Origin: an uncultured Gammaproteobacteria bacterium
Lineage (GTDB): Bacteria; Pseudomonadota; Gammaproteobacteria; CAYGNG01
DNA: 64,000 bases
Direction of reading: 5' to 3'
NCBI GenBank assembly: GCA_964351225.1
Contig: CAYGNG010000005.1
Span: 12,976-76,975, forward strand
The notes below the pieces were generated by a model. It saw only the letters and a program-made list of their open reading frames with translations. It had not been told where the DNA came from and did no database searches. Below are positions 8,143 through 46,720 of the stretch, one piece after another. The stretch's first letter is position 1. Each line of letters opens with the position of its first letter. Both the position numbers and the translations under genes were made by a program.

Positions 8143-9666
8143 CTACTGGTGACTTTCTAAACCAGTGGCAGCATAAGCACAATCATTGAACGGATAACGT
8201 TGCCCTGCTATTTCTTGGTAATCCTCATGCCCTTTGCCGGCAATTAATACCACATCTCCTGTTTGCGCACTAGCTATCATTTCATGAATCGCCGCTGCTC
8301 GGTTTAAATTAATCGAAAATGAATAAGAACTATCAAATCCCATCACAATTTCATCGACTATTTGCTTGGGATCTTCGCCACGAGGGTTATCGTTCGTCAC
8401 CAGCGCACGATCCGCATAACGCGCCACGGCTTTTGCCATCAGCGGCCGTTTCTGCCGGTCGCGCTCTCCGCCACAGCCAAAAACGCAAAATAACTGCCCT
8501 TTGGTGTGAGTTTTTAGTACAGATAACACTTGTTCTAAGGCATCGGGCGAATGGGCATAATCAACAACCACAAGTGGCTTATCACCACCGCCCAATGTCT
8601 GCATGCGCCCGGGTGCCCCTTTTATTTGAGCCAGTCGTGCGGCCACCTCACTGAGCGACATCCCCATTAAATTAGCAACCGTTACCGTCGCCAACGCATT
8701 ACTCAAATTAAACCGCCCCAGTAGTGGAATAACCAGTTGCGTATGGCCCCATGGGGTATCGACCTCGGCACGAATGCCCGTCTCAGAATATTCCATGTCA
8801 CAGGCGATAATGGTGCGAATACCAGGCATCGTCCGCCCCTCGATAGAGTAACCATATACTTGCAATTTGACGCTTAATTCTTTACATAATGCCAGCCCAA
8901 ATTCATCATCTAAATTAATCACGGCTTGACGCAGACTGGGAACTGAAAACAATTTGCGCTTTGCTTGCCCATAACGCGTCATATCACCATGATAATCCAG
9001 ATGTTCATGCGTTAAATTGGTAAAAACGCCGATATCAAAAATAACATTATTCACCCGACCTTGATCTAAAGCATGTGAGGACACCTCCATGGCCACCGCT
9101 TGGATCCCTTGGCCGCGAAGTTCGGCCAGAGTCCTTTGTACAGAAACCGCATCGGGTGTCGTAAGATTGCCCGCTTTAATGTCATGGACAGGTCCAGATC
9201 CCAAGGTCCCAATAACGCCACTGGCAATGCCTGCTGCACGTAATATTTGGGCAATAAAAAGCGTACAAGATGTTTTACCATTGGTGCCAGTAACCCCTAT
9301 TAATTTCATCCACCGTGAAGGATAATGAAAATAGCGTGCCGCAATATAACCAATTCGAAAACGTAACTGTTTGAGCATAACATGGGTAATGCCAGCGATC
9401 TCCGTCGCGTACGACTCCCCAGCCATTAAATCACGAATGATAACGCAAGCGCCTTTATCTACCGCCTCTTTTATGTAATCTATCCCGCCCCCGAAAGCAA
9501 CAAAGGTGGAGCCGTTGGTGACCGCGCGACTATCTACAAAAAGATCGGTAACCGATTTATCGAGATGCGCTGGAATATCGACAATTCCAGATAACAGTTC
9601 GCTTAACAGAACCGACTTGGTCGATATACGCGGTTGTTTAGTGCATTTTATCATCGGGCGCCACAT
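8143..9666 (-). CDS. murE: UDP-N-acetylmuramoyl-L-alanyl-D-glutamate--2,6-diaminopimelate ligase MurE
   Basis: 507 aa Mur ligase; IGVTGTNGKTS P-loop and Mur-ligase C-terminal DNPR motif; followed directly by mraY (no murF in between). Confidence 0.9.
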   Translation of the reverse strand: MWRPMIKCTKQPRISTKSVLLSELLSGIVDIPAHLDKSVTDLFVDSRAVTNGSTFVAFGGGIDYIKEAVDKGACVIIRDLMAGESYATEIAGITHVMLKQLRFRIGYIAARYFHYPSRWMKLIGVTGTNGKTSCTLFIAQILRAAGIASGVIGTLGSGPVHDIKAGNLTTPDAVSVQRTLAELRGQGIQAVAMEVSSHALDQGRVNNVIFDIGVFTNLTHEHLDYHGDMTRYGQAKRKLFSVPSLRQAVINLDDEFGLALCKELSVKLQVYGYSIEGRTMPGIRTIIACDMEYSETGIRAEVDTPWGHTQLVIPLLGRFNLSNALATVTVANLMGMSLSEVAARLAQIKGAPGRMQTLGGGDKPLVVVDYAHSPDALEQVLSVLKTHTKGQLFCVFGCGGERDRQKRPLMAKAVARYADRALVTNDNPRGEDPKQIVDEIVMGFDSSYSFSINLNRAAAIHEMIASAQTGDVVLIAGKGHEDYQEIAGQRYPFNDCAYAATGLESHQ

Positions 9667-11317
9667 TTAAAATTCTCAATGCCCCACCCATCACTTTTGC
9701 AAAAATAGGCGCAGCAACACGACCACCATAGTACACTTTTCCACGCGGATCATGAATAACAACAGCAACCACTAGCCTGGGCTGGCTTGCCGGGGCTAAC
9801 CCAACAAAAATACTATTATGCCTGTTTTTCTCATACCCATATTTTCCCACGATACGTGTTGTGCCTGTTTTGCCACTGACACGATACCCTGGAACCCGAG
9901 CAAGTGGTGCTGTTCCCCCTCGTGCGACAACGGACTCCATCATGGTGACAATCTGTCTTGCCATATTGGCAGTGATCACTCGAACACCATGACTTAATTT
10001 ATTTGTTTTTAAAAACGTTACTGGATAACGTATCCCGCCGGATCCGAGAATAGCGTAAGCATTTGCCAACTGCAAAGCCGTTACCGATATACCATAACCG
10101 AATCCCAAAGTGGCCAGGGTAAATGGCTCCCATTCGGAATGGTAAGGCAAGCGCCCCATGCTCTCTCCTGGAAAACCGCTTTCTGTTATTTCGCCAAAAC
10201 CAAAACGATGCAACAAACGATAGAGACGCTCTCCGGTCGATGCCAGCACCAGCTTCGAAACCCCGACATTGCTTGATATTTGTAAAATTGTCTCAACGGT
10301 AATTTTTCCGTGATTAATCCTATCTTTCACTTGATGACCATTCAAGGTTAAAAATCCAGGCGCGGTATTCACCAAGGTAGTTGGCTCAAAGTTCCCGCTG
10401 GCTAAGGCATTGGCAACCGCAAAGGGTTTCAGCGCCGAACCCGGTTCAAAAACATCCGTTACCGCACGATTACGATAACGGGCCATCTGGTTACTTTGCA
10501 AACGACTATTCGGGTTAAATGAAGGTTGATTAACCATCGCTAATACTTCACCATTGGTTACATTCATAACGATAATTGAGCCAGACTCCGCATGATACTC
10601 ATCTATCGCGGCCTGCAATTCACGATAGGCCAAATACTGAATTCTTCTATCGATACTTAATGTCAGCTCATTGCCGGGTTTCGGGGATTGCACAATATTC
10701 AGATCGTCAACCACCCGACCAATCCTATCTTTGACCACTCGTTTCTTTCCCGGGATCCCCCGCAACCAATTATCAAACGACAACTCTAATCCTTCTATTC
10801 CGTGGTCATCAATATTGGTTATTCCTAGAATATGAGCCATGATTTCACCTTCTGGGTAGAAGCGATGAAACTCTCCTTGTAAAAACAATCCTGGCAACCC
10901 AATAAGCTTAATGGCATTGGCAATCGTTGGATTAACCCCACGCTTAAGGTAAATAAATTCGCGTGCTTTATTTTGTTTTATCCGCTGCTTCAGCAACCGC
11001 GAATTGAAGCCAATCAATTTACTCACTTGTTGTAATCGACTATCTTGCACGGAAACCTCTTTTGGATTCATCCAAACAGAAGACACCGGTGTACTGATTG
11101 CTAATGGCTCACCATTGCGATCAGAGATAATCCCACGATAAGCAGGAATAGCCACGGTTCGTAAAGCACGAGCATCTCCTTGACTGAGTAAAAAAGCACG
11201 GTCCACTACCATCAACTGCACCATGCGCCCTATCAACCCCACTAATATTAACGTCAATAATCCCAGAACTATCCGATGACGCCAACGAGTCGGCCACTCG
11301 TCACCATACTTCTTCAC
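9638..11317 (-). CDS. ftsI: Peptidoglycan D,D-transpeptidase FtsI (PBP3)
   Basis: 559 aa; N-terminal TM, PBP dimerisation and transpeptidase domains (SxxK, SxN, KTG-type motifs: …FEPGSALKPF…, …SSN…, …KTGT…). Confidence 0.9.
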   Translation of the reverse strand: MKKYGDEWPTRWRHRIVLGLLTLILVGLIGRMVQLMVVDRAFLLSQGDARALRTVAIPAYRGIISDRNGEPLAISTPVSSVWMNPKEVSVQDSRLQQVSKLIGFNSRLLKQRIKQNKAREFIYLKRGVNPTIANAIKLIGLPGLFLQGEFHRFYPEGEIMAHILGITNIDDHGIEGLELSFDNWLRGIPGKKRVVKDRIGRVVDDLNIVQSPKPGNELTLSIDRRIQYLAYRELQAAIDEYHAESGSIIVMNVTNGEVLAMVNQPSFNPNSRLQSNQMARYRNRAVTDVFEPGSALKPFAVANALASGNFEPTTLVNTAPGFLTLNGHQVKDRINHGKITVETILQISSNVGVSKLVLASTGERLYRLLHRFGFGEITESGFPGESMGRLPYHSEWEPFTLATLGFGYGISVTALQLANAYAILGSGGIRYPVTFLKTNKLSHGVRVITANMARQIVTMMESVVARGGTAPLARVPGYRVSGKTGTTRIVGKYGYEKNRHNSIFVGLAPASQPRLVVAVVIHDPRGKVYYGGRVAAPIFAKVMGGALRILNVAPDDKMH

Positions 11318-25777: not shown

Positions 25778-26776
25778 ATGGTTACAATTGACGCACAAAA
25801 AAACCCCGTTACCACCAGTTTTTGTGAAATGGGCCGCGCCGTCTTTGAAACCGAAGCCCAAGCAGTGCTCGATTTATTACCGCGTATTGATCATAAATTC
25901 TCTGCAGCTTGCGAATATCTGTTGCGGTGCGATGGCCGAATTATTGTAATGGGCATGGGAAAATCAGGCCACATTGGCAAAAAAGTTGCCGCAACATTCG
26001 CCAGCACCGGCAGCCCGGCTTTTTACGTTCATCCTGCGGAAGCCAGCCACGGCGATCTCGGTATGATCACGCGTAAAGATGTGGTACTCGCTATTTCAAA
26101 CTCAGGCCAAACGAATGAGTTACTTATCATTGTACCGCTCATCAAGCGCTTTGGCATTCCACTTATCACCATGACGGGCGATCCCCGCTCGGTGTTGGCA
26201 AAAAATGCCACCGTCAACTTGGATATTAGCGTGCAACAAGAAGCTTGCCCGCTGGGGCTGGCCCCGACTTCAAGCACAACGGTTGCACTGGTCATGGGCG
26301 ATGCTCTGGCCATTGCGCTTTTAAGAACACGAGGCTTCACCAAAGAAGATTTTGCACTCACTCATCCATCCGGTGCACTCGGAAGAAAATTATTATTACG
26401 AATCGATGACCTCATGCATAAAGACGCTAACATACCCATCGTCATCAAATCCGCCACGATTGCAGAAACCCTAATCGAAATGACGAAAAAACGCTTAGGT
26501 ATGACGGTCGTTATCAACGACGACCATCATATTGCGGGAATTTATACCGATGGTGACTTACGCCGAACGCTAGACCGTGGTCTAGATATCCACAAAACCC
26601 CGGTGGGTGACGTCATGACACAAAACTGCAAAACCATTAAACAAGGCACTTTAGCGGCCGAAGCGCTACACGTTATGGAGCAGTGTAAAATCACTTCCTT
26701 GGTCGTAACCGATGATAACAAACAGTTACACGGTGTTATTCATATTCACAGTCTGATCAGTGCAGGAGTAATCTAA
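25778..26776 (+). CDS. kdsD: Arabinose-5-phosphate isomerase KdsD (SIS + tandem CBS domains)
   Basis: 332 aa; SIS motif GMGKSGHIG and C-terminal CBS pair; followed by kdsC. Confidence 0.9.
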   Translation: MVTIDAQKNPVTTSFCEMGRAVFETEAQAVLDLLPRIDHKFSAACEYLLRCDGRIIVMGMGKSGHIGKKVAATFASTGSPAFYVHPAEASHGDLGMITRKDVVLAISNSGQTNELLIIVPLIKRFGIPLITMTGDPRSVLAKNATVNLDISVQQEACPLGLAPTSSTTVALVMGDALAIALLRTRGFTKEDFALTHPSGALGRKLLLRIDDLMHKDANIPIVIKSATIAETLIEMTKKRLGMTVVINDDHHIAGIYTDGDLRRTLDRGLDIHKTPVGDVMTQNCKTIKQGTLAAEALHVMEQCKITSLVVTDDNKQLHGVIHIHSLISAGVI

Positions 26777-26781
26777 AATCC

Positions 26782-27321
26782 ATGGCACAATACCTCGATT
26801 TTTCGCCCGATTTATTAGTTAAAGCCCAAAAAGTCAAACTATTGGTTTGTGACGTCGATGGGGTACTCACCAATGGCTTATTTTATTACGACCAAGCCGA
26901 AGAAAATAAATGTTTCCACGTCCACGACGGCTTAGGCATTCAATTAATCCAGCGAAGTGGTATCCCCGTCGCCATTGTTTCAGCAAAGACATCGCCCGCT
27001 GTTACACGGCGGATGGCTGAGCTTGACGTTGAATGGGTTTATCAAGGATGCTCACCGAAATTGCCTACCGTGGAGAAACTCATTGCCAATCTCAATCTCA
27101 CCTTTGAGCAAATTGCTTATATAGGTGATGATCTGGCCGATCTTGCTTTAATCCGCCGCGCTGGCCTTGGCGTTACCGTAGCGAATGCTCGCCCCTACCT
27201 CAAATCCCATGCCGATTGGATAAGTCCTTTAGCTGGCGGTAGTGGTGCAGTGCGAGAGCTCACCGATCTCATCATGACCGCACAAAACACCCTAGATAAA
27301 GCGATTGAGGCATTTTTATGA
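26782..27321 (+). CDS. kdsC: 3-deoxy-D-manno-octulosonate 8-phosphate phosphatase KdsC (HAD family)
   Basis: 179 aa; HAD motif LLVCDVDGVLT; operon position. Confidence 0.85.
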   Translation: MAQYLDFSPDLLVKAQKVKLLVCDVDGVLTNGLFYYDQAEENKCFHVHDGLGIQLIQRSGIPVAIVSAKTSPAVTRRMAELDVEWVYQGCSPKLPTVEKLIANLNLTFEQIAYIGDDLADLALIRRAGLGVTVANARPYLKSHADWISPLAGGSGAVRELTDLIMTAQNTLDKAIEAFL

Positions 27322-28241
27322 TGGTTACCATCAAACAATTTCTTGGTTATGGCTTGCTGATTACGATATTAATAGCAAGCTCCGTTATTTTGCTCTATTT
27401 AAGGCACACGGAGTCACTCGATGTACAGCCCGCTCCAGCTAACATACCCGATAGCTACGCTAAGCAAGTTACCCTTTCTCGATACGCACCCAATGGCAAA
27501 TTACACAGTGCATTAACCTCTCATTACATCCTTCATTATGATAAAGCACGAGTCACCAATCTATACCACCCCATTGTCTATTTTAAAAATCCTGATCACG
27601 AAGACTGGATCATTCGCTCAAACTACGCCCAATACAATGATAGCAATGACATCATTGAATTTTGGGAGGCGGCAAACATTCAACAACAAGCCAGCGCCGT
27701 TCAGCCGCCAACTGAAATCAACACCGCCTATCTGCGATATAACCCACTAACGAGTATAGCGAATACAGCAACAAAAGTTACTATCATCCAACCGAAAAAC
27801 ACCCCATCAGAATCATTGACGATCACGGCTGATTCGGCTATTTTTAAACATAATGAGGGGATCAGCACTTTCACCGATCAGGTTAAAATACAACAGGGCA
27901 GCACCGTCATTACGGGGAAAAAAATGATTGCCTATACCAACCACGCCAACAAATTAACTAAACTTATCATTGATGGTAATCCCGCCCGCTATCAAACAAC
28001 CCCTAACGTTTCGCAATCAAATGTATATGCCTCTGCACAGCAGATTTATTATTTCCCCAGTAAAAAAGAAGTGGATTTGATAGGCAATGCAACCGCCACA
28101 CAAAATCAAAAAATCATCACCGGGCCACACTTAAAATATTTTACCGAGCAAAAACTGGTAATTTCACCACCCAATGACATCGGGCAAACCACCATTATCT
28201 ACCCACCGGATCCCAGCGCACAAGGATCGCAACATGGGTGA
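27318..28241 (+). CDS. lptC: LptC-like N-terminal region (TM + OstA-fold) fused to an LptA-like C-terminal domain (apparent LptC-LptA fusion; no separate lptA)
   Basis: 307 aa; N-term TM helix, residues ~40-120 resemble LptC, residues ~165-307 show the LptA pattern (…[35 protein letters not shown]…IIDGNPARY…[21 protein letters not shown]); stop overlaps lptB start (ATGGGTGA). Confidence 0.6.
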
Positions 28242-28959
28242 GTTACGCGCAGAGCAATTAGCAAAAGCCTATAAAAAGCAAGCGATCGTCAAAAACGTTT
28301 CACTGTCAGTTAAAAGTGGCGAAATTGTAGGGCTACTGGGGCCCAACGGCGCAGGGAAAACCACCAGCTTTTATATGATTGTTGGCCTTATCCCCTGCGA
28401 CTCAGGAAAGGTTTCAATCGACAATCAAGATATCACGCACAGCCCCATGCATATGAGAGCACGTGCCGGCTGCGGCTATTTACCACAAGAAGCATCGATT
28501 TTTCGGAAAATGACTGTCGCCAATAATATTTTATCCATTTTAGAATTGCGCAAAAACCTCAACCGCAAACAACGGAAAGAAAAACTCGAAGAATTACTAT
28601 CCGCCTTTGGTCTTGAAAACCTCCGAGACAATGAAGGCATTCGCTTATCCGGTGGTGAACGACGTCGAGTAGAGATTGCCCGAGCACTGGCCACCGAGCC
28701 AAAATTTATTTTATTAGATGAGCCTTTCGCAGGCATTGATCCGATTTCGGTTCATGAAATTAAACAAATCATTCACCAACTGCAACAAAAAAACATAGGG
28801 ATCCTGATTACTGATCATAATGTTCGGGAGACTTTGGCTATCTGTGTTCGTGCTTATATCGTTAATCGAGGTGAAATCCTCTGCTCTGGTGATCCTCAAA
28901 CCATCCTGAATAACACCGAGGTTAGATCCGTTTATCTTGGTGAAGAGTTTGCGATGTAA
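28234..28959 (+). CDS. lptB: LPS export ABC transporter ATP-binding protein LptB (start at [15 protein letters not shown])
   Basis: Walker [10 protein letters not shown], signature LSGGERRR, Walker B ILLDEP; conserved lptB N-terminus. Confidence 0.9.
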
Positions 28960-28978: not shown

Positions 28979-29875
28979 TCAAGATAAAAGTGCGCCATAT
29001 CCCTCAATATAAGTCGGATATTTTAATTCAAACCCGCTTTGCTTGAGCTTATGATTACTGCAACGTTTACCACGGATCTCTGGAATTTCTCGCGTTTGCA
29101 TTGCAGCGGTATCACCAAAACATTGCCGATTTAGCCAAGTGTATACCTCATTCATATCGACTGGCGCATCATCTGTAACGAGAAACTTACCACTTAACCC
29201 TTGATTGTTGATAACATGCCAAACAAAAGCGGCGCAATCTTTTTCATGGATCCGATTGCGGTAATGCGGCTTCGAGGTAAGAAACACTTCTTGCTCTCGA
29301 ACGCTTTGCAATAAACTACTGCGAAGATCACCGTAAATTCCGGAGCATCGTAATATCGCATATGGATTTTCGGAGCAAGACAAGGCTTGCTCGGCCGCCA
29401 GTAACGTTTTGGCGATGACCGTCGTAGCGCTTGGCGGTGTCACTTCATTGACCCACTCGCCATTATCTTGACCATACACACCCGTGCTTGAGATATAAAT
29501 TATTTTTTTCACCGCCACGGTATTTAATAGCGAAACAATCCGCTTTATACCTAAGACATAGGTATGGTGATAATTTTTCTCATCGCGAACGGCAGGTGCT
29601 GGGCAATACACTAAATAGTCTACCGCAGCTGGAAGCTGGTTTTGAGTGACAGTGGTCACATCAGCAATAATTTCCGTGACCCCCTCTGGCATTTGCCCAG
29701 CGGTTCGCCGGAGCCCATACACGTCAAACTGATCCGTGGGTTGTAACCCAACGATTGCCCGAGCAAGCCGACCAAACCCAGCGATAACTAATGTTGGTTT
29801 CAAGTTTAAATCCTTTGATTTTAAATGCTTTTTAAAGTAATTGGCGATAAACCCTAAGTTTAGCAACCACCCCAC
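28979..29875 (-). CDS. NAD(P)-binding SDR-family epimerase/dehydratase-like protein inserted between lptB and rpoN
   Basis: 298 aa; Rossmann motif LVIAGFGRLARAIVG near N-terminus; opposite strand to flanking conserved genes. Confidence 0.65.
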   Translation of the reverse strand: MGWLLNLGFIANYFKKHLKSKDLNLKPTLVIAGFGRLARAIVGLQPTDQFDVYGLRRTAGQMPEGVTEIIADVTTVTQNQLPAAVDYLVYCPAPAVRDEKNYHHTYVLGIKRIVSLLNTVAVKKIIYISSTGVYGQDNGEWVNEVTPPSATTVIAKTLLAAEQALSCSENPYAILRCSGIYGDLRSSLLQSVREQEVFLTSKPHYRNRIHEKDCAAFVWHVINNQGLSGKFLVTDDAPVDMNEVYTWLNRQCFGDTAAMQTREIPEIRGKRCSNHKLKQSGFELKYPTYIEGYGALLS

Positions 29876-42050: not shown

Positions 42051-42863
42051 TCAAATTAACTTCGCATGCTCAATCGCTGGAAAATTTTTCCTAACACTCG
42101 CTTGAAACTCAAAATCCAAATCTGCCGTAATAACACCAGGCTCATTCTCTCTACGAGCCAAAATGTCACCCCACGGTGAAACCACCATACTATCACCGTA
42201 GGTCTCTCGACCACTCATGTGTTTACCCCATTGTGCTGCAGCAATCACATAGCTTAAGTTCTCTATTGCACGCGCCCTAAGCAAAACTTCCCAATGGGCA
42301 CGCCCGGTCACCGCGGTAAAAGCAGCGGGAATCGCCATGACATCTACCTGTAATCGATGCATCCGCCTAAACAATTCAGGAAATCTCAAATCATAACACA
42401 CAGCCAATCCGAGTCGCCCAAGCGGAGAATCCAATACCACTATCTCGGTACCAGGCTCCGTATGGAGACTTTCTCGATAAATGCCTCGTTGATCGGCCAC
42501 CGATACATCAAATAAATGGACCTTATCGTAACGAGCTTTACAAATCCCATTATCATCGAAAACCAAGGTGCTTGAACGTGATTTATTCGCATCGACCCCT
42601 TTAAGTGGAATCGTGCCACCCACCAACCACAGTTTGTATTTTTTTGCACATTCAGAAAGAAATGTCTGCAATCGCCCGCGACCAAACGTTTCTCGCAGTG
42701 ATAAACGTTGCTCCTCACTTGCACCCAAACAAGCAAAATCTTCCGGCAAAACCGCAAGCTGCACTTGCTCATGAGACAACACCGATAAATAGTGATCGAC
42801 CCGCTCAAGATTCGTTTGAGCATCCGTCGAACTGGTCAGTTGCACCGCCGCAACCTTTGTCAT
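42051..42863 (-). CDS. Carbon-nitrogen hydrolase (nitrilase superfamily) protein
   Basis: 270 aa; CN-hydrolase fold motifs (…LAVCYDLRFPE…); position between tldD and yhdP-like gene as in Pseudomonas. Confidence 0.8.
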   Translation of the reverse strand: MTKVAAVQLTSSTDAQTNLERVDHYLSVLSHEQVQLAVLPEDFACLGASEEQRLSLRETFGRGRLQTFLSECAKKYKLWLVGGTIPLKGVDANKSRSSTLVFDDNGICKARYDKVHLFDVSVADQRGIYRESLHTEPGTEIVVLDSPLGRLGLAVCYDLRFPELFRRMHRLQVDVMAIPAAFTAVTGRAHWEVLLRARAIENLSYVIAAAQWGKHMSGRETYGDSMVVSPWGDILARRENEPGVITADLDFEFQASVRKNFPAIEHAKLI

Positions 42864-45800
42864 TTTCTCACTCCCTGCCTCGAATATTTTTGTGATTGCA
42901 GCAAGGTGATCTTAGGATTATCCCATGAACCTTGCATCCGATAAATATTTGACGTCAACTGCCCCACGGCAGGCGACACCACTTGATCGGCAACCCACGT
43001 GATCACCCCAAGCACAGGACCACCAGCAATAGTCGCAACAACGGGCAAGCTCGAAGTCACATAGGGAATAATGTCTAATTGTACATCAAAATTGTGCTCC
43101 GCTAAACCTATCTTGCCGCGTAACCCAACAAAAGCGATTGGACCATCTAAATAAGCATTTTTAGTGACCGCATTACCATTTTGCAAATGAAAGGTTCCCT
43201 GCAAAATGTCAAAATCAAAACCTTCATTAGAAATTGCTTTATGATCCAGCGATAAACGGCGACGTAACGATCGCAAGCTTAGAAAGGTTAATAACTTCCC
43301 AGTTGCAATTTGCTGCTCGGCTTGTTCGCCTAAAGTTAACACTTCACCACCATGTAAAGTCAACGCCATCTGGCCATTCACCCGCTCAATGGCAAAATCA
43401 AATAAAGAACCACGCCAATCAATATCAAAATCCAATTCCCCTTTGCTTGCTTGTAACGCCGGCTCAACATTAAAATCCTGAAATACTTGTTGAACAGCAG
43501 CGGCCTTGAGCTCACCACTCAACTTGGTTAAGCCATTATTTCCATCACGCCAACTACCTCTAGCCCGCAACAACCAATTCGGCCTATTAAAGCTCAACTC
43601 ATGAATTTGAACAACCGACTTGTTTTTTTCTATCCTTATCGTTACTTTTCCTAATTGATACCGACCAAATTTGCAATCTTTGCAATAAAAATCAAACCGC
43701 TGGAGATCACCAGGCAAGAATTGCCTAGTGCCTTTAGACTGTGGCATATTCTTTAAATGCAATCGAGAAAAATTAAATACCACGCTTCCTTTAGCGCTCA
43801 AAGGATAGGCGATATCGCCTTTGATATGCCGGTTATTCACCGATAACAACCAAGCTGATTTCTGCTTTTGTGCTTTAACATTGATATCACGAAAAACCCT
43901 ATTCGCCCACAATAGTCTACCAATGTTGGTATTAACCCGTAGCCGCTCTACATAATTTGGCGACTGCGTTTTCATGTATTTTGCGTGCTTTTTATATAAA
44001 TGTATCCAAGGGGATAAATCTAATTTATCGAGGTGGCCATCAACTAGAATTTCTGAATTTTTAAGGACCTTGGTTTTGGTTTTTGCAAAGCTCAAATGGG
44101 CATTTGTTAATTGAATACCCTGCTGTTGTTTTTTAAGCTCAATCGCAGCGGCAAACCGATTGGCCATAACCAAGTTAATAACTTGTCGCTCACCTTGACT
44201 TAATAGCACATCCATCAAGAAACGTTGCTGAGCTTGTGGTTTTTTAGCAAACGGCTCTGGCAAATCTATTTGTATGCCGACTAAATCGCTGCGGATACGT
44301 AGGCTATCAGGCAGCTTACTCTTAATGCCTTGCAGCGACAATAAGACATTCAGATCGGTACTACCCGAGATGATTCCATAAGTTGGAGCGTGGAAAAAGT
44401 CCAAGACTTTCTCGATCGGCAAATGGCCCTGCAACAATACTTCAGTAAAATTTTCTCGCTTTTCCTTTGAACGGGAAGTGGCCCTCAAGGTGACTGGTTT
44501 TCCAAACAATTCCGCGTGCATCGGCGCACTCAGCAACCCATCTTGATTAAACATTAAATTTCCCATCACTTTATTGAGACTGAGGTGCCATAAGGGAACA
44601 ACGATTTCACTATTACTCAACCGTATTTCCCCTTTGGTCTGCACCGGCAGATCGGATCGGTCTAAAGGAATTGAAAGCGCCAAATGCAGATCCAATGGTC
44701 CTTTAAATTCCATATCGCGAAACGCGCTTCCCAAGGTATGCTGCAATGGGGTGTGCCTGATGAAATTCATCCCTTTTTCCATCGTCGAAAGCACATCACC
44801 GGATAACAGCAAAGAAGCACTGTCACCATGCTGCAAATTGGGGATCCGCGCCTTAATATCACTCAAATGCACATTCAATATGTCGGCTTTAGAATGTGCA
44901 AAATAAATAGCTTGATTCAAAAATTCGATGTCAGTTGAAATATTTTTAACCGAAGGCCATGCTTTGTTAAAGCGTAAATCTCCGTGTTCAATATGGGTGT
45001 TCGCTTCAAAAACCCCCATATTATCAACAAATGGGAAATGGGTGATTAAACCACGCAAATTAATTTGCAGATCAAAAGGATCGCTGTGTTTGAGCGAATG
45101 CGTGAGCCATTGAAAAAGCCTCGGCTTCATCACGCCAACCGGGTAATAATGCTTAATCTGCCCTAAGTCACCACAATGTATTTTCCCTAACACACTGATC
45201 TCTGTTTGAGTTAAATCACTTGGTAACTGCACAGCTCCAGATAACTGAGCATCGAGTTCAGAATTTACTAATTGTAGCTTATCAAACTGAACGGTCTTGG
45301 TATCACCATGCAACAATACGCTAACAAGCCCACGAGCATCATTAAAATACAGCGGTTGCGGCAATAATTTTCCTGCATCGAGCGTTATGTTACTACTATT
45401 AAGTTGTAGTTGTAGCCCATTTTGCGTCGCGATTACCGCACCAGTTAAATTATCAACCCCAGGGAATTTATCTTGTGGATCACTATGAAAATGCTCCGCA
45501 TCGGCTTGAATGATAAAATGACTGAACGGTTCGTGCCAATTAAAACCAACACGCAAATTTTGTAATTGACCACTATAATTATACACCGATCCCAAGTAAG
45601 GTCTCACATCGCTTAGTGACAAGCGATCTGCTATCATCTTTACTTGATAATCTTTAGCATTCTCATCAGATTGAATTTGCAGCCATGAAGTCGGCCAATT
45701 TTTTTTATCGATAACAATATGCAATTTATCAAACAATAAATCCCATTTCTGCTTGGTATATTTGCTCCAAGAAAGCGTTCCTGAAAACGCATTGCAACGA

Positions 45801-46720
45801 TAAGGATGCTTTTGATATTCAAATGTCGCTGCTTCTAAATCAAACTGACTTTGTATTTTTTGCCATTGCCCACCCTCCCATTTTGCCCAAATTTTTGCGC
45901 TTAATTTGCCGGCATCGATGGTGAGATCCGGTAAATTTTGCAGCCATTGCTTTAGGGCCTGTTGCCATCTGCAGTCGAAAAAGCAATTATCAACAGGCCC
46001 TAATACTAAATTCCTAAAATTCAAGTATAAGTCTATTTTAGTTTGCTCAGGATCTAAAGTTGTCCCTTGCATGATCATACCAAATGAAACGGGGGATTGA
46101 ATATCTCGTGCTAAATGAAAGCCACCTTTAACATAATGCTTTTGGGCTCCGCTGTTATTTATAATCACATTGAGATCGATCAGTGAATACACTTTTCCAG
46201 CCGCCGATTTAAACAAAAGATCGATATGTGACAATGCAATACTATTACGATTTAAAATCCACTTTAGTGGCGACTGATATGAATCATAAGATATGGTTGC
46301 TTGTAATGGCAGCGGATAACCATTAATAGTGAACGCGGTAGTGCCGATCTGCGCTATGGTCAACTTGATCCCGGAAAGCTCAATGCTTTGTGGATCCAGT
46401 GTGAGAGAAAATAAGCTGGCAAGCAAACTAAATTGTGCGTTTAATCGCTCTGCGCTTAAAATCGGTTGTTTTTTTTCATCATATAAAATGATATGGTGCA
46501 ATGTAATGCTGGGATGCCATCGATGCCAATGAAATTCCGAATGCGACAACGTAATGGTCTGATGGAGCGCTCGACTGACCCATCTTTCAACTTGAGCATT
46601 GTCTTGCAGCCACATCGGCACAATAACGCGAAGCACACTGGAGAGCACGGCCAGCAATACCACAGCCACCGCACACAACAACCCTATTTTTTGCCATAAC
46701 CATTTTGCCAATTTGACCAC
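42860..46720 (-). CDS. yhdP: YhdP/AsmA-like giant envelope protein (N-terminal TM anchor, ~1286 aa) carrying an in-frame MITE insertion
   Basis: Size, single N-terminal TM helix, and genomic position next to mreBCD and tldD match YhdP (AsmA2/DUF3971 family); no catalytic motifs expected. Confidence 0.7.
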   Translation of the reverse strand: MVKLAKWLWQKIGLLCAVAVVLLAVLSSVLRVIVPMWLQDNAQVERWVSRALHQTITLSHSEFHWHRWHPSITLHHIILYDEKKQPILSAERLNAQFSLLASLFSLTLDPQSIELSGIKLTIAQIGTTAFTINGYPLPLQATISYDSYQSPLKWILNRNSIALSHIDLLFKSAAGKVYSLIDLNVIINNSGAQKHYVKGGFHLARDIQSPVSFGMIMQGTTLDPEQTKIDLYLNFRNLVLGPVDNCFFDCRWQQALKQWLQNLPDLTIDAGKLSAKIWAKWEGGQWQKIQSQFDLEAATFEYQKHPYRCNAFSGTLSWSKYTKQKWDLLFDKLHIVIDKKNWPTSWLQIQSDENAKDYQVKMIADRLSLSDVRPYLGSVYNYSGQLQNLRVGFNWHEPFSHFIIQADAEHFHSDPQDKFPGVDNLTGAVIATQNGLQLQLNSSNITLDAGKLLPQPLYFNDARGLVSVLLHGDTKTVQFDKLQLVNSELDAQLSGAVQLPSDLTQTEISVLGKIHCGDLGQIKHYYPVGVMKPRLFQWLTHSLKHSDPFDLQINLRGLITHFPFVDNMGVFEANTHIEHGDLRFNKAWPSVKNISTDIEFLNQAIYFAHSKADILNVHLSDIKARIPNLQHGDSASLLLSGDVLSTMEKGMNFIRHTPLQHTLGSAFRDMEFKGPLDLHLALSIPLDRSDLPVQTKGEIRLSNSEIVVPLWHLSLNKVMGNLMFNQDGLLSAPMHAELFGKPVTLRATSRSKEKRENFTEVLLQGHLPIEKVLDFFHAPTYGIISGSTDLNVLLSLQGIKSKLPDSLRIRSDLVGIQIDLPEPFAKKPQAQQRFLMDVLLSQGERQVINLVMANRFAAAIELKKQQQGIQLTNAHLSFAKTKTKVLKNSEILVDGHLDKLDLSPWIHLYKKHAKYMKTQSPNYVERLRVNTNIGRLLWANRVFRDINVKAQKQKSAWLLSVNNRHIKGDIAYPLSAKGSVVFNFSRLHLKNMPQSKGTRQFLPGDLQRFDFYCKDCKFGRYQLGKVTIRIEKNKSVVQIHELSFNRPNWLLRARGSWRDGNNGLTKLSGELKAAAVQQVFQDFNVEPALQASKGELDFDIDWRGSLFDFAIERVNGQMALTLHGGEVLTLGEQAEQQIATGKLLTFLSLRSLRRRLSLDHKAISNEGFDFDILQGTFHLQNGNAVTKNAYLDGPIAFVGLRGKIGLAEHNFDVQLDIIPYVTSSLPVVATIAGGPVLGVITWVADQVVSPAVGQLTSNIYRMQGSWDNPKITLLQSQKYSRQGVRK
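45953..46003. repeat. Palindromic MITE/REP-like element, copy 4, inserted IN-FRAME inside the yhdP-like CDS (translated as [17 protein letters not shown])
   Basis: tagggcctgttgccatctgcagtcgaaaaagcaattatcaacaggccctaa, 51 bp = 17 codons; ORF continues uninterrupted on both sides. Confidence 0.85.

Follow-up and report, generated by a model that had tools for sequence, protein, structure and literature searches.

A probable natural fusion of the lipopolysaccharide transport proteins LptC and LptA in an uncultured Legionellales-like bacterium

LptC and LptA are components of the bridge that carries lipopolysaccharide (LPS) to the outer membrane, the former being normally anchored to the membrane and the latter soluble. 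In Escherichia coli, the terminal strands of LptC form the edge that binds LptA and include positions that contact LPS. LptC uses its C-terminal strand to pair with the N-terminal strand of LptA, and the two genes overlap by 32 nucleotides (PMC4986956). We analyzed a stretch of 64 kb (referred to as the window; contig CAYGNG010000005.1) from an uncultured bacterium that appears Legionellales-like in sequence comparisons. In this window, a single open reading frame (ORF) located at positions 27318..28241 of the forward strand is probably a genuine and functional in-frame fusion of lptC and lptA.

Several arrangements described in E. coli provide points of comparison. LptC (YrbK), the bitopic component of the LptB2FGC complex in this species and in other Gammaproteobacteria, tolerates deletion of its C-terminus (PMC4986956) and can be bypassed altogether (PMC4986956, PMC9972910). 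The lptF suppressor mutants lacking LptC assemble a six-protein bridge, indicating that the jellyroll modules are interchangeable and that fewer polypeptides are possible (PMC4986956, PMC9972910). These mutants do without LptC, LptA being in direct contact with LptF, whereas both modules are kept and joined in the protein encoded by the window. Monomeric LptA is sufficient for viability of E. coli (PMC5575297). An engineered E. coli LptC-LptA fusion was found to form a stable complex with LptB2FG and to transfer LPS to LptD in vitro in an ATP-dependent manner (PMC12065857). The window protein likewise carries LptC and LptA on one polypeptide, but it is natural, compact, and devoid of the C-terminal strands of LptC, whereas the engineered protein is a linker-joined laboratory construct that avoids LptA oligomerization. 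Our searches of the literature brought up no account of LptC-LptA fusions occurring in nature, nor of the repeated appearance of such proteins or of the truncated compact type; publications matching 'LptCA' referred to the lptCA gene pair or to ΔlptCA deletions.

The fusion gene starts with an ATG codon and encodes 307 residues followed by a stop codon. No other substantial ORF lies between kdsC and lptB in the window sequence. Like a canonical lptC gene, it directly follows kdsC, the stop codon of which shares an ATGA overlap with the start of the fusion. Like a canonical lptA gene, it is directly upstream from lptB, and its stop codon overlaps the lptB start (ATGGGTGA).

Curated hidden Markov models (HMMs) for LptC and for LptA both matched the translated product above their cutoffs. 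The N-terminal half was recognized by the Pfam LptC model (PF06835; residues 15-161; model positions 2-148 of 175; E = 5.3e-27; 95 bits for a cutoff of 21) and by the NCBIfam equivalog model TIGR04409 (residues 13-162; model positions 4-155 of 180; 113.3 bits for a cutoff of 38). The C-terminal half was recognized by the Pfam LptD_N/LptA model (PF03968; residues 168-278; model positions 1-111 of 113; E = 3.5e-23; 82.4 bits for a cutoff of 20.4) and by the LptA equivalog model TIGR03002 (residues 164-294; model positions 7-138 of 142; 95.3 bits for a cutoff of 71.7). The cutoff of the Enterobacterial-level LptA model NF008143 was not reached (30 bits versus 234), which is unsurprising given the distance of the lineage. 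A purpose-built LptC HMM matched the fusion over model positions 3-161 of about 190. With a purpose-built LptA HMM made from 145 domains, the fusion scored 163.5 bits, as compared to 169.9 bits for the stand-alone LptA encoded by contig L052 described below. In a phmmer search of the sequences of the Protein Data Bank (PDB), the C-terminal half matched LptH 4uu4 and LptA 2r19 and 8onu.

When 1.84 billion cluster representatives were searched exhaustively with HMMER, 1349 relatives were retrieved, the best 150 of which were inspected. The majority of these 150 sequences were stand-alone LptA proteins of 160-190 residues aligning to residues ~164-300 of the fusion. The top representative (P0002), a stand-alone LptA of 168 residues, displayed 49% identity over residues 165-301 of the fusion; its gene lies between lptC and lptB on Logan contig L052, the slot that the fusion occupies in the window. 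These matches bear on the possibility that the ORF encodes one long LptC, the C-terminal half of which would be an extension or a duplication of the LptC jellyroll, the true lptA being located elsewhere. LptC, LptA, and the N-terminal domain of LptD share one fold, and the Pfam LptC model shows a weak second stretch in the protein, both of which count for this possibility. However, the C-terminal half scored above the LptA equivalog cutoff and was most similar to stand-alone LptA proteins, the best of which is the product of a syntenic lptA gene. The N- and C-terminal halves were not significantly alike (blastp E = 0.27), and an internal duplication was rejected. The LptA cutoff, the best matches, and the synteny with L052 effectively refute the long-LptC explanation, to which we attach almost no credence.

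The structure of the fusion was modeled with AlphaFold. Prediction from the single sequence only reached a mean predicted local distance difference test (pLDDT) score of 39.7, whereas the model built on an alignment of 10 sequences had a pLDDT of 84.6 and a predicted template modeling (pTM) score of 0.69. The latter model contained one helix (residues 5-31) followed by uninterrupted beta strands (residues 46-294), with pLDDT values of ~76-87 at the junction. The top matches of this model in a Foldseek search of the PDB were LptH, LptA, and LptC, with target-normalized template modeling scores of 0.74-0.88. Scores were 0.77-0.88 for LptA/LptH (2r1a, 2r19, and 4uu4; root-mean-square deviation of 1.9-3.2 Å) and 0.85 for LptC (3my2). 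Full-length LptC chains including the transmembrane helix, originating from LptB2FGC complexes (6mit_C and 6mjp_C), were also among the matches. The fusion is thus predicted to consist of a transmembrane helix and, downstream from it, two beta-jellyroll modules in succession, which resemble the solved structures of LptC and LptA/LptH.

Combining the models, the alignments, and the predicted structure, four segments were delineated on the forward strand. The putative N-terminal transmembrane anchor (residues ~5-31; 27330..27410) corresponds to the AlphaFold helix, is hydrophobic in sequence, and matches full-length LptC (6mit_C and 6mjp_C). The LptC-type beta-jellyroll (residues ~45-158; 27450..27791), delineated by the HMM matches, stops ~27-31 residues short of the end of canonical LptC. 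The junction (PKNTPS, residues 159-164; 27792..27809), assigned by alignment, contains neither a signal peptide nor a hydrophobic stretch. The LptA-type beta-jellyroll (residues ~165-295; 27810..28202) is equivalent to mature LptA, as assigned by TIGR03002, identity to the LptA of L052, and the PDB matches, for which target-normalized scores of 0.80-0.88 were obtained with this module. The protein therefore shares the transmembrane helix and the jellyroll of LptC but runs on into an LptA module instead of ending with the canonical strands. Similarly, it holds the complete jellyroll of mature LptA (YhbN) or LptH, but this module lacks a signal peptide and, rather than being a free soluble protein, is tethered to the inner membrane via LptC.

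An earlier note, made from the sequence, had described a 307-residue ORF standing alone between kdsC and lptB and overlapping the latter, with an N-terminal LptC part including a transmembrane anchor and a C-terminal LptA part that would be covalently tethered to it if the assignment was right. The position of the ORF and its overlap with lptB were borne out, as was the identity of the C-terminal part, both through TIGR03002 and through the similarity to the syntenic LptA of L052. Tethering is supported by the presence of a single uninterrupted frame that passes both equivalog models. The HMMs and AlphaFold confirmed the nature of the N-terminal part, but it extends over ~160 residues rather than the ~130 anticipated. 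Domain searches and structure prediction, proposed as checks by the same note, delimited the two Pfam domains and the two consecutive jellyrolls, respectively. The protein did not resolve into a single long LptC jellyroll since its C-terminal half passes the LptA cutoff and matches the LptA/LptH fold.

L052 was the nearest relative of the window found, with identities of 77% for MlaE, 71% for LptB, 70% for KdsD, and 53% for KdsC; the closest LptB in the scanned collection of genome contigs was 68% identical. The gene order on L052 is mlaE, mlaF / kdsD, kdsC, lptC (189 residues), lptA (168 residues), and lptB, with an lptC-lptA overlap of 11 nucleotides. The mlaFE / kdsD-kdsC-lptC-lptA-lptB synteny of the window is shared with L052, L036 (Legionella sp. 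metagenome-assembled genome [MAG] GCA_002786165.1), L003, and L002 (uncultured Legionella sp.), all of which have separate genes. In these four loci, lptC and lptA overlap by 11-65 nucleotides and are out of frame. Residues 15-158 of the fusion aligned with residues 14-158 of the LptC of L052, and residues 165-301 with residues 27-163 of its LptA. The last 31 residues of the L052 LptC (159-189) have no counterpart in the fusion. The same holds true for residues 1-26 of the L052 LptA, comprising the signal peptide MNRKLISSILIMALFQFCFALS and a few residues after it. According to the alignment, the signal peptides of P0002 to P0010 and of the LptA proteins of L002 and L003 are also absent from the junction. 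From the start of lptC to the stop of lptA, the window is 142 nucleotides shorter than L052, and 142 modulo 3 equals 1, the same value as the offset separating the lptC and lptA frames of L052. Since the net shortfall matches this offset modulo 3, a deletion across the lptC-lptA overlap accounts for the fusion. A net deletion of about 142 nucleotides across the overlap is therefore the most likely origin of the fusion, as judged from this comparison, the divergence between the two loci being too great to show a single event.

The gene order also departs from the canonical lptC-lptA-lptB arrangement in another member of the group, Legionellales bacterium RIFCSPHIGHO2_12_FULL_37_14 (MHBC01000014.1; L005:3401-4717). 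In this locus, lptC (190 residues) is followed 16 nucleotides downstream by lptB, with no lptA gene in between, and no LptA-like sequence was detected within 8.7 kb.

The DNA of the window evidently comes from a metagenome-derived assembly, the window protein is a singleton cluster, and its LptC part lacks the C-terminus. These features would also fit an artefact or a pseudogene, i.e. separate or decaying genes joined by a sequencing or assembly deletion or by a recent inactivating deletion. In contrast, a 142-nucleotide deletion located exactly at the N-terminus of mature LptA and restoring the frame is atypical of sequencing errors. The identical protein with the same neighbors was present on a 14-kb Logan contig from run ERR3534985. 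Both domains scored like intact homologs, as illustrated above by the LptA HMM, the overlaps with kdsC and lptB were kept, and the flanking LPS genes were intact. Compact fusions without the same C-terminal block of LptC were found in L054 and, from several independent samples, in L058/L059 (see below). Finally, wherever this has been tested, LptC and LptA proved to be essential, which weighs against a pseudogene. We consider that an artefact or a pseudogene is very unlikely.

The window protein is not the only one of its kind. Among the best 150 of the 1349 relatives, at least 14 other clusters at 50% identity contained LptC followed by LptA on one chain of 267-341 residues (P0019, P0021, P0031, P0033, P0036, P0041, P0048, P0059, P0064, P0071, P0085, P0113, P0118, and P0134, all from uncultured Gammaproteobacteria). 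Both domains were detected by Pfam in the ten other fusions that were scanned (10/10). These proteins have the same chain of transmembrane anchor, LptC, and LptA as the window protein, with an overall identity to it of 21-29%. The fusions that were looked up were rare metagenomic proteins, mostly forming singleton clusters. One is annotated by JGI as 'LPS export ABC transporter protein LptC/lipopolysaccharide transport protein LptA' and another by NCBI as 'LptC [Gammaproteobacteria bacterium]'. Every part of the protein belongs to a known family, and databases already contain annotations that reveal the fused architecture.

Six of these fusions were viewed in their genomic context (P0033 in L050, P0019 in L051, P0031 in L054, P0021 in L055 and L056, P0118 in L057, and P0041 in L058 and L059). 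The lptB gene was directly downstream in all six loci and kdsC was upstream in five, the upstream gene of L057 being cut by the contig end. The P0041 protein, carried by the ERZ19397860 and ERZ19033950 bins among others, was identical on 7 contigs from several samples, and P0021 was shared by an NCBI MAG (GCA_050249855.1) and a Logan run unrelated to it. Recurrence of these two proteins in independent samples indicates that they are not assembly accidents. Most of the other fusions comprise a complete LptC and a linker of 10-25 residues. Compactness is shared by P0031, P0041, and the window protein, in which the match to the LptC HMM ends at positions 151, 162, and 161 of ~190, respectively. 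The clade comprising P0019, P0064, P0036, P0048, and P0033 has retained the architecture although its members share as little as 29-42% pairwise identity, and each module contains invariant residues, which argues for long-term function of this fusion clade. A scan of metagenome contigs based on P0031 only retrieved distant loci encoding a stand-alone LptA. The LptC-LptA fusion is a rare but recurrent arrangement among related bacteria; the Lpt architecture that the earlier note had called unusual is indeed rare, but not unique to the window.

To estimate the number of origins of the fusion, we relied on a neighbor-joining tree of LptB with bootstrap, as the tree of the LptA domain was too poorly resolved for counting fusion events. 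Based on a protein of 241 residues, the LptB tree is a rough guide. The window grouped with the non-fused L052 (92.5% bootstrap), and its fusion thus appears to be an independent event. The fusion of L058 was located inside a Legionellales group, the other members of which have separate genes (99.5% bootstrap). L051 and L055, both fused, grouped together (93.5%), whereas the grouping of all fusion carriers received 0% bootstrap support. The junctions also differ between fusions. The tree and the junctions together indicate at least three independent origins. The lptC and lptA genes overlap out of frame, so that one small deletion can fuse them, which offers a simple explanation for the recurrence.

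Further features of the carrier loci were recorded. The contigs of fusion carriers have a G+C content of 35-44%. Genes encoding very large ankyrin-repeat proteins were located within a few kb of two fusions, on the minus strand of L055 (1-1650; 1104 residues) and of L058 (9646-10804; 676 residues), with weak or faint Ank hits. These genes and the rough placement by LptB suggest that the carriers are host-associated Legionellales-like bacteria. In three other carriers, hpf (Ribosomal_S30AE) comes directly after lptB, without an intervening rpoN (L051:3060-4085, L054:10867-11930, and L055:5996-7186). L054 has an unannotated ORF of 108 residues (9450-9776, plus strand) and a gap of 225 nucleotides between kdsC and the fusion; this ORF matched neither the LptC nor the LptA HMM. 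In L057 (1000-1723), the lptB gene following P0118 was called in two pieces of 161 and 96 residues, probably due to a frameshift or a sequencing error on a short Logan contig of doubtful quality.

If the fusion functions as proposed, its transmembrane helix and the N-terminal edge of its LptC module would dock on LptF and LptG of the LptB2FG complex, as does E. coli LptC. LPS extracted by LptB2FG would slide along one continuous hydrophobic groove, formed by the LptC module and then by the LptA module, the free C-terminal edge of which would dock on the N-terminal jellyroll of LptD. Exported as part of a bitopic protein, the LptA module would require no signal peptide of its own. The contact between LptC and LptA, which is non-covalent in E. 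coli, would be replaced by a peptide bond, the terminal strands of LptC being gone. The LptC to LptA stoichiometry would be fixed at 1:1, and any regulated making or breaking of the bridge would have to occur at the LptA-LptD end. This mechanism is made plausible by the engineered fusion, by the sufficiency of monomeric LptA, and by the tolerated deletions and bypass of LptC. For the window organism, we infer the expression, the function, and the stoichiometry of the fusion, as well as the lack of additional free LptA.

The latter point separates the covalent bridge from a partly overlapping alternative, which differs from it in stoichiometry only. A stand-alone lptA could be present elsewhere in the genome, and the bridge would then consist of the LptC-LptA fusion, one or several additional LptA subunits, and LptD, the fusion merely lengthening the inner-membrane stub. 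LptA forms head-to-tail oligomers (PMC4986956), and the locus is variable in the group, since the direct succession of lptC and lptB in L005 implies that lptA can lie elsewhere or be missing. The search for a second lptA covered 64 kb of the genome, which also leaves room for this alternative. Conversely, the location of LptA elsewhere, which the earlier note had retained as an option, was excluded for the 64-kb window, as neither tblastn with the C-terminal half nor a six-frame search with the LptA HMM revealed a second LptA/OstA-like sequence. The same HMM search was negative for further LptA-like sequences in five other fusion loci of 7.8-20.7 kb. Furthermore, monomeric LptA suffices in E. 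coli (PMC5575297) and a second copy would explain nothing that was observed. We therefore regard the coexistence of the fusion with a free LptA as unlikely, though well short of negligible. We tentatively propose that LPS is exported with a single covalent LptC-LptA and no free LptA in the window lineage, as well as in two or more further Legionellales-like lineages of independent origin, although doubt slightly outweighs acceptance.

Overall, one intact LptC-LptA protein, having arisen by deletion and working as a covalent bridge unit, is the best explanation of the data, with a probability that we estimate at roughly 0.8. A few considerations weigh against it. The LptC module is devoid of the terminal strands, the HMM matches ending at positions 155 of 180, 148 of 175, and 161 of ~190, and these strands form the LptA-binding edge in E. 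coli. The AlphaFold model was built on a shallow alignment of 10 sequences. The window assembly and the Logan contig of ERR3534985 may derive from the same reads. No close relative, with an identity above 50%, was found to carry this particular fusion. Finally, the 64-kb scope of the search for a second lptA mentioned above also has to be counted here.

On the plus strand, kdsD (25778..26776; 332 residues; SIS and CBS domains) and kdsC (26782..27321; 179 residues; Hydrolase_3), both with syntenic counterparts in L052, precede the fusion, which is followed by lptB (28234..28959; 241 residues; ABC_tran domain; 61-71% identity to LptB of relatives). The usual adjacency of lptB and rpoN is broken by a minus-strand gene (28979..29875) resembling those of NAD-dependent epimerases. 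The complete order is mlaD-mlaE-mlaF (minus strand), kdsD, kdsC, the fusion, lptB, the epimerase-like gene (minus strand), rpoN, and hpf. The conserved block extending from kdsD to rpoN, as initially described, is thus present up to lptB but is interrupted downstream from this gene. The lptF, lptG, and lptD genes were not found in the 64-kb window.

Elsewhere in the window, three large ORFs on the minus strand (18099-20285, 52833-56450, and 56551-59559, the last two being adjacent) encode proteins of 727, 1205, and 1002 residues with no Pfam match at E<=1e-5, which may be lineage-specific or effector-like. Ordinary housekeeping genes include those encoding a full-length YhdP (42860-46720, minus strand; 1286 residues), a FakA-like protein (15150-17048, plus strand; 632 residues; Dak2, FakA middle, and DegV domains), and a class A RNase P RNA (13882-14220, minus strand; 339.9 bits).

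Two questions in LPS transport are the number of LptA molecules in the bridge and the identity of the contact that is made or broken during assembly. In current models for E. coli, LptC binds to a pre-formed LptA-LptDE complex (PMC11447908). Both questions are addressed by an experiment of evolution, namely a permanent LptC-LptA join from which part of the interface has been lost. Provided that the carriers indeed have no other lptA, their bridge would function with a single LptA, and LptD would be the one place where this bridge can come apart reversibly. Natural fusions would then prove that one LptA module per transporter suffices to span the periplasm and that the LptC-LptA contact, which is normally regulated, can be permanent. 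The compact forms (the window protein, P0031, and P0041), in which the LptC module is cut at HMM positions 151-162, would define the minimal length of the bridge, and the terminal strands of LptC would be structurally replaceable by the first strands of LptA. Natural fusions could also serve as monomeric and stable LptC-LptA reagents for structural work on the whole bridge.

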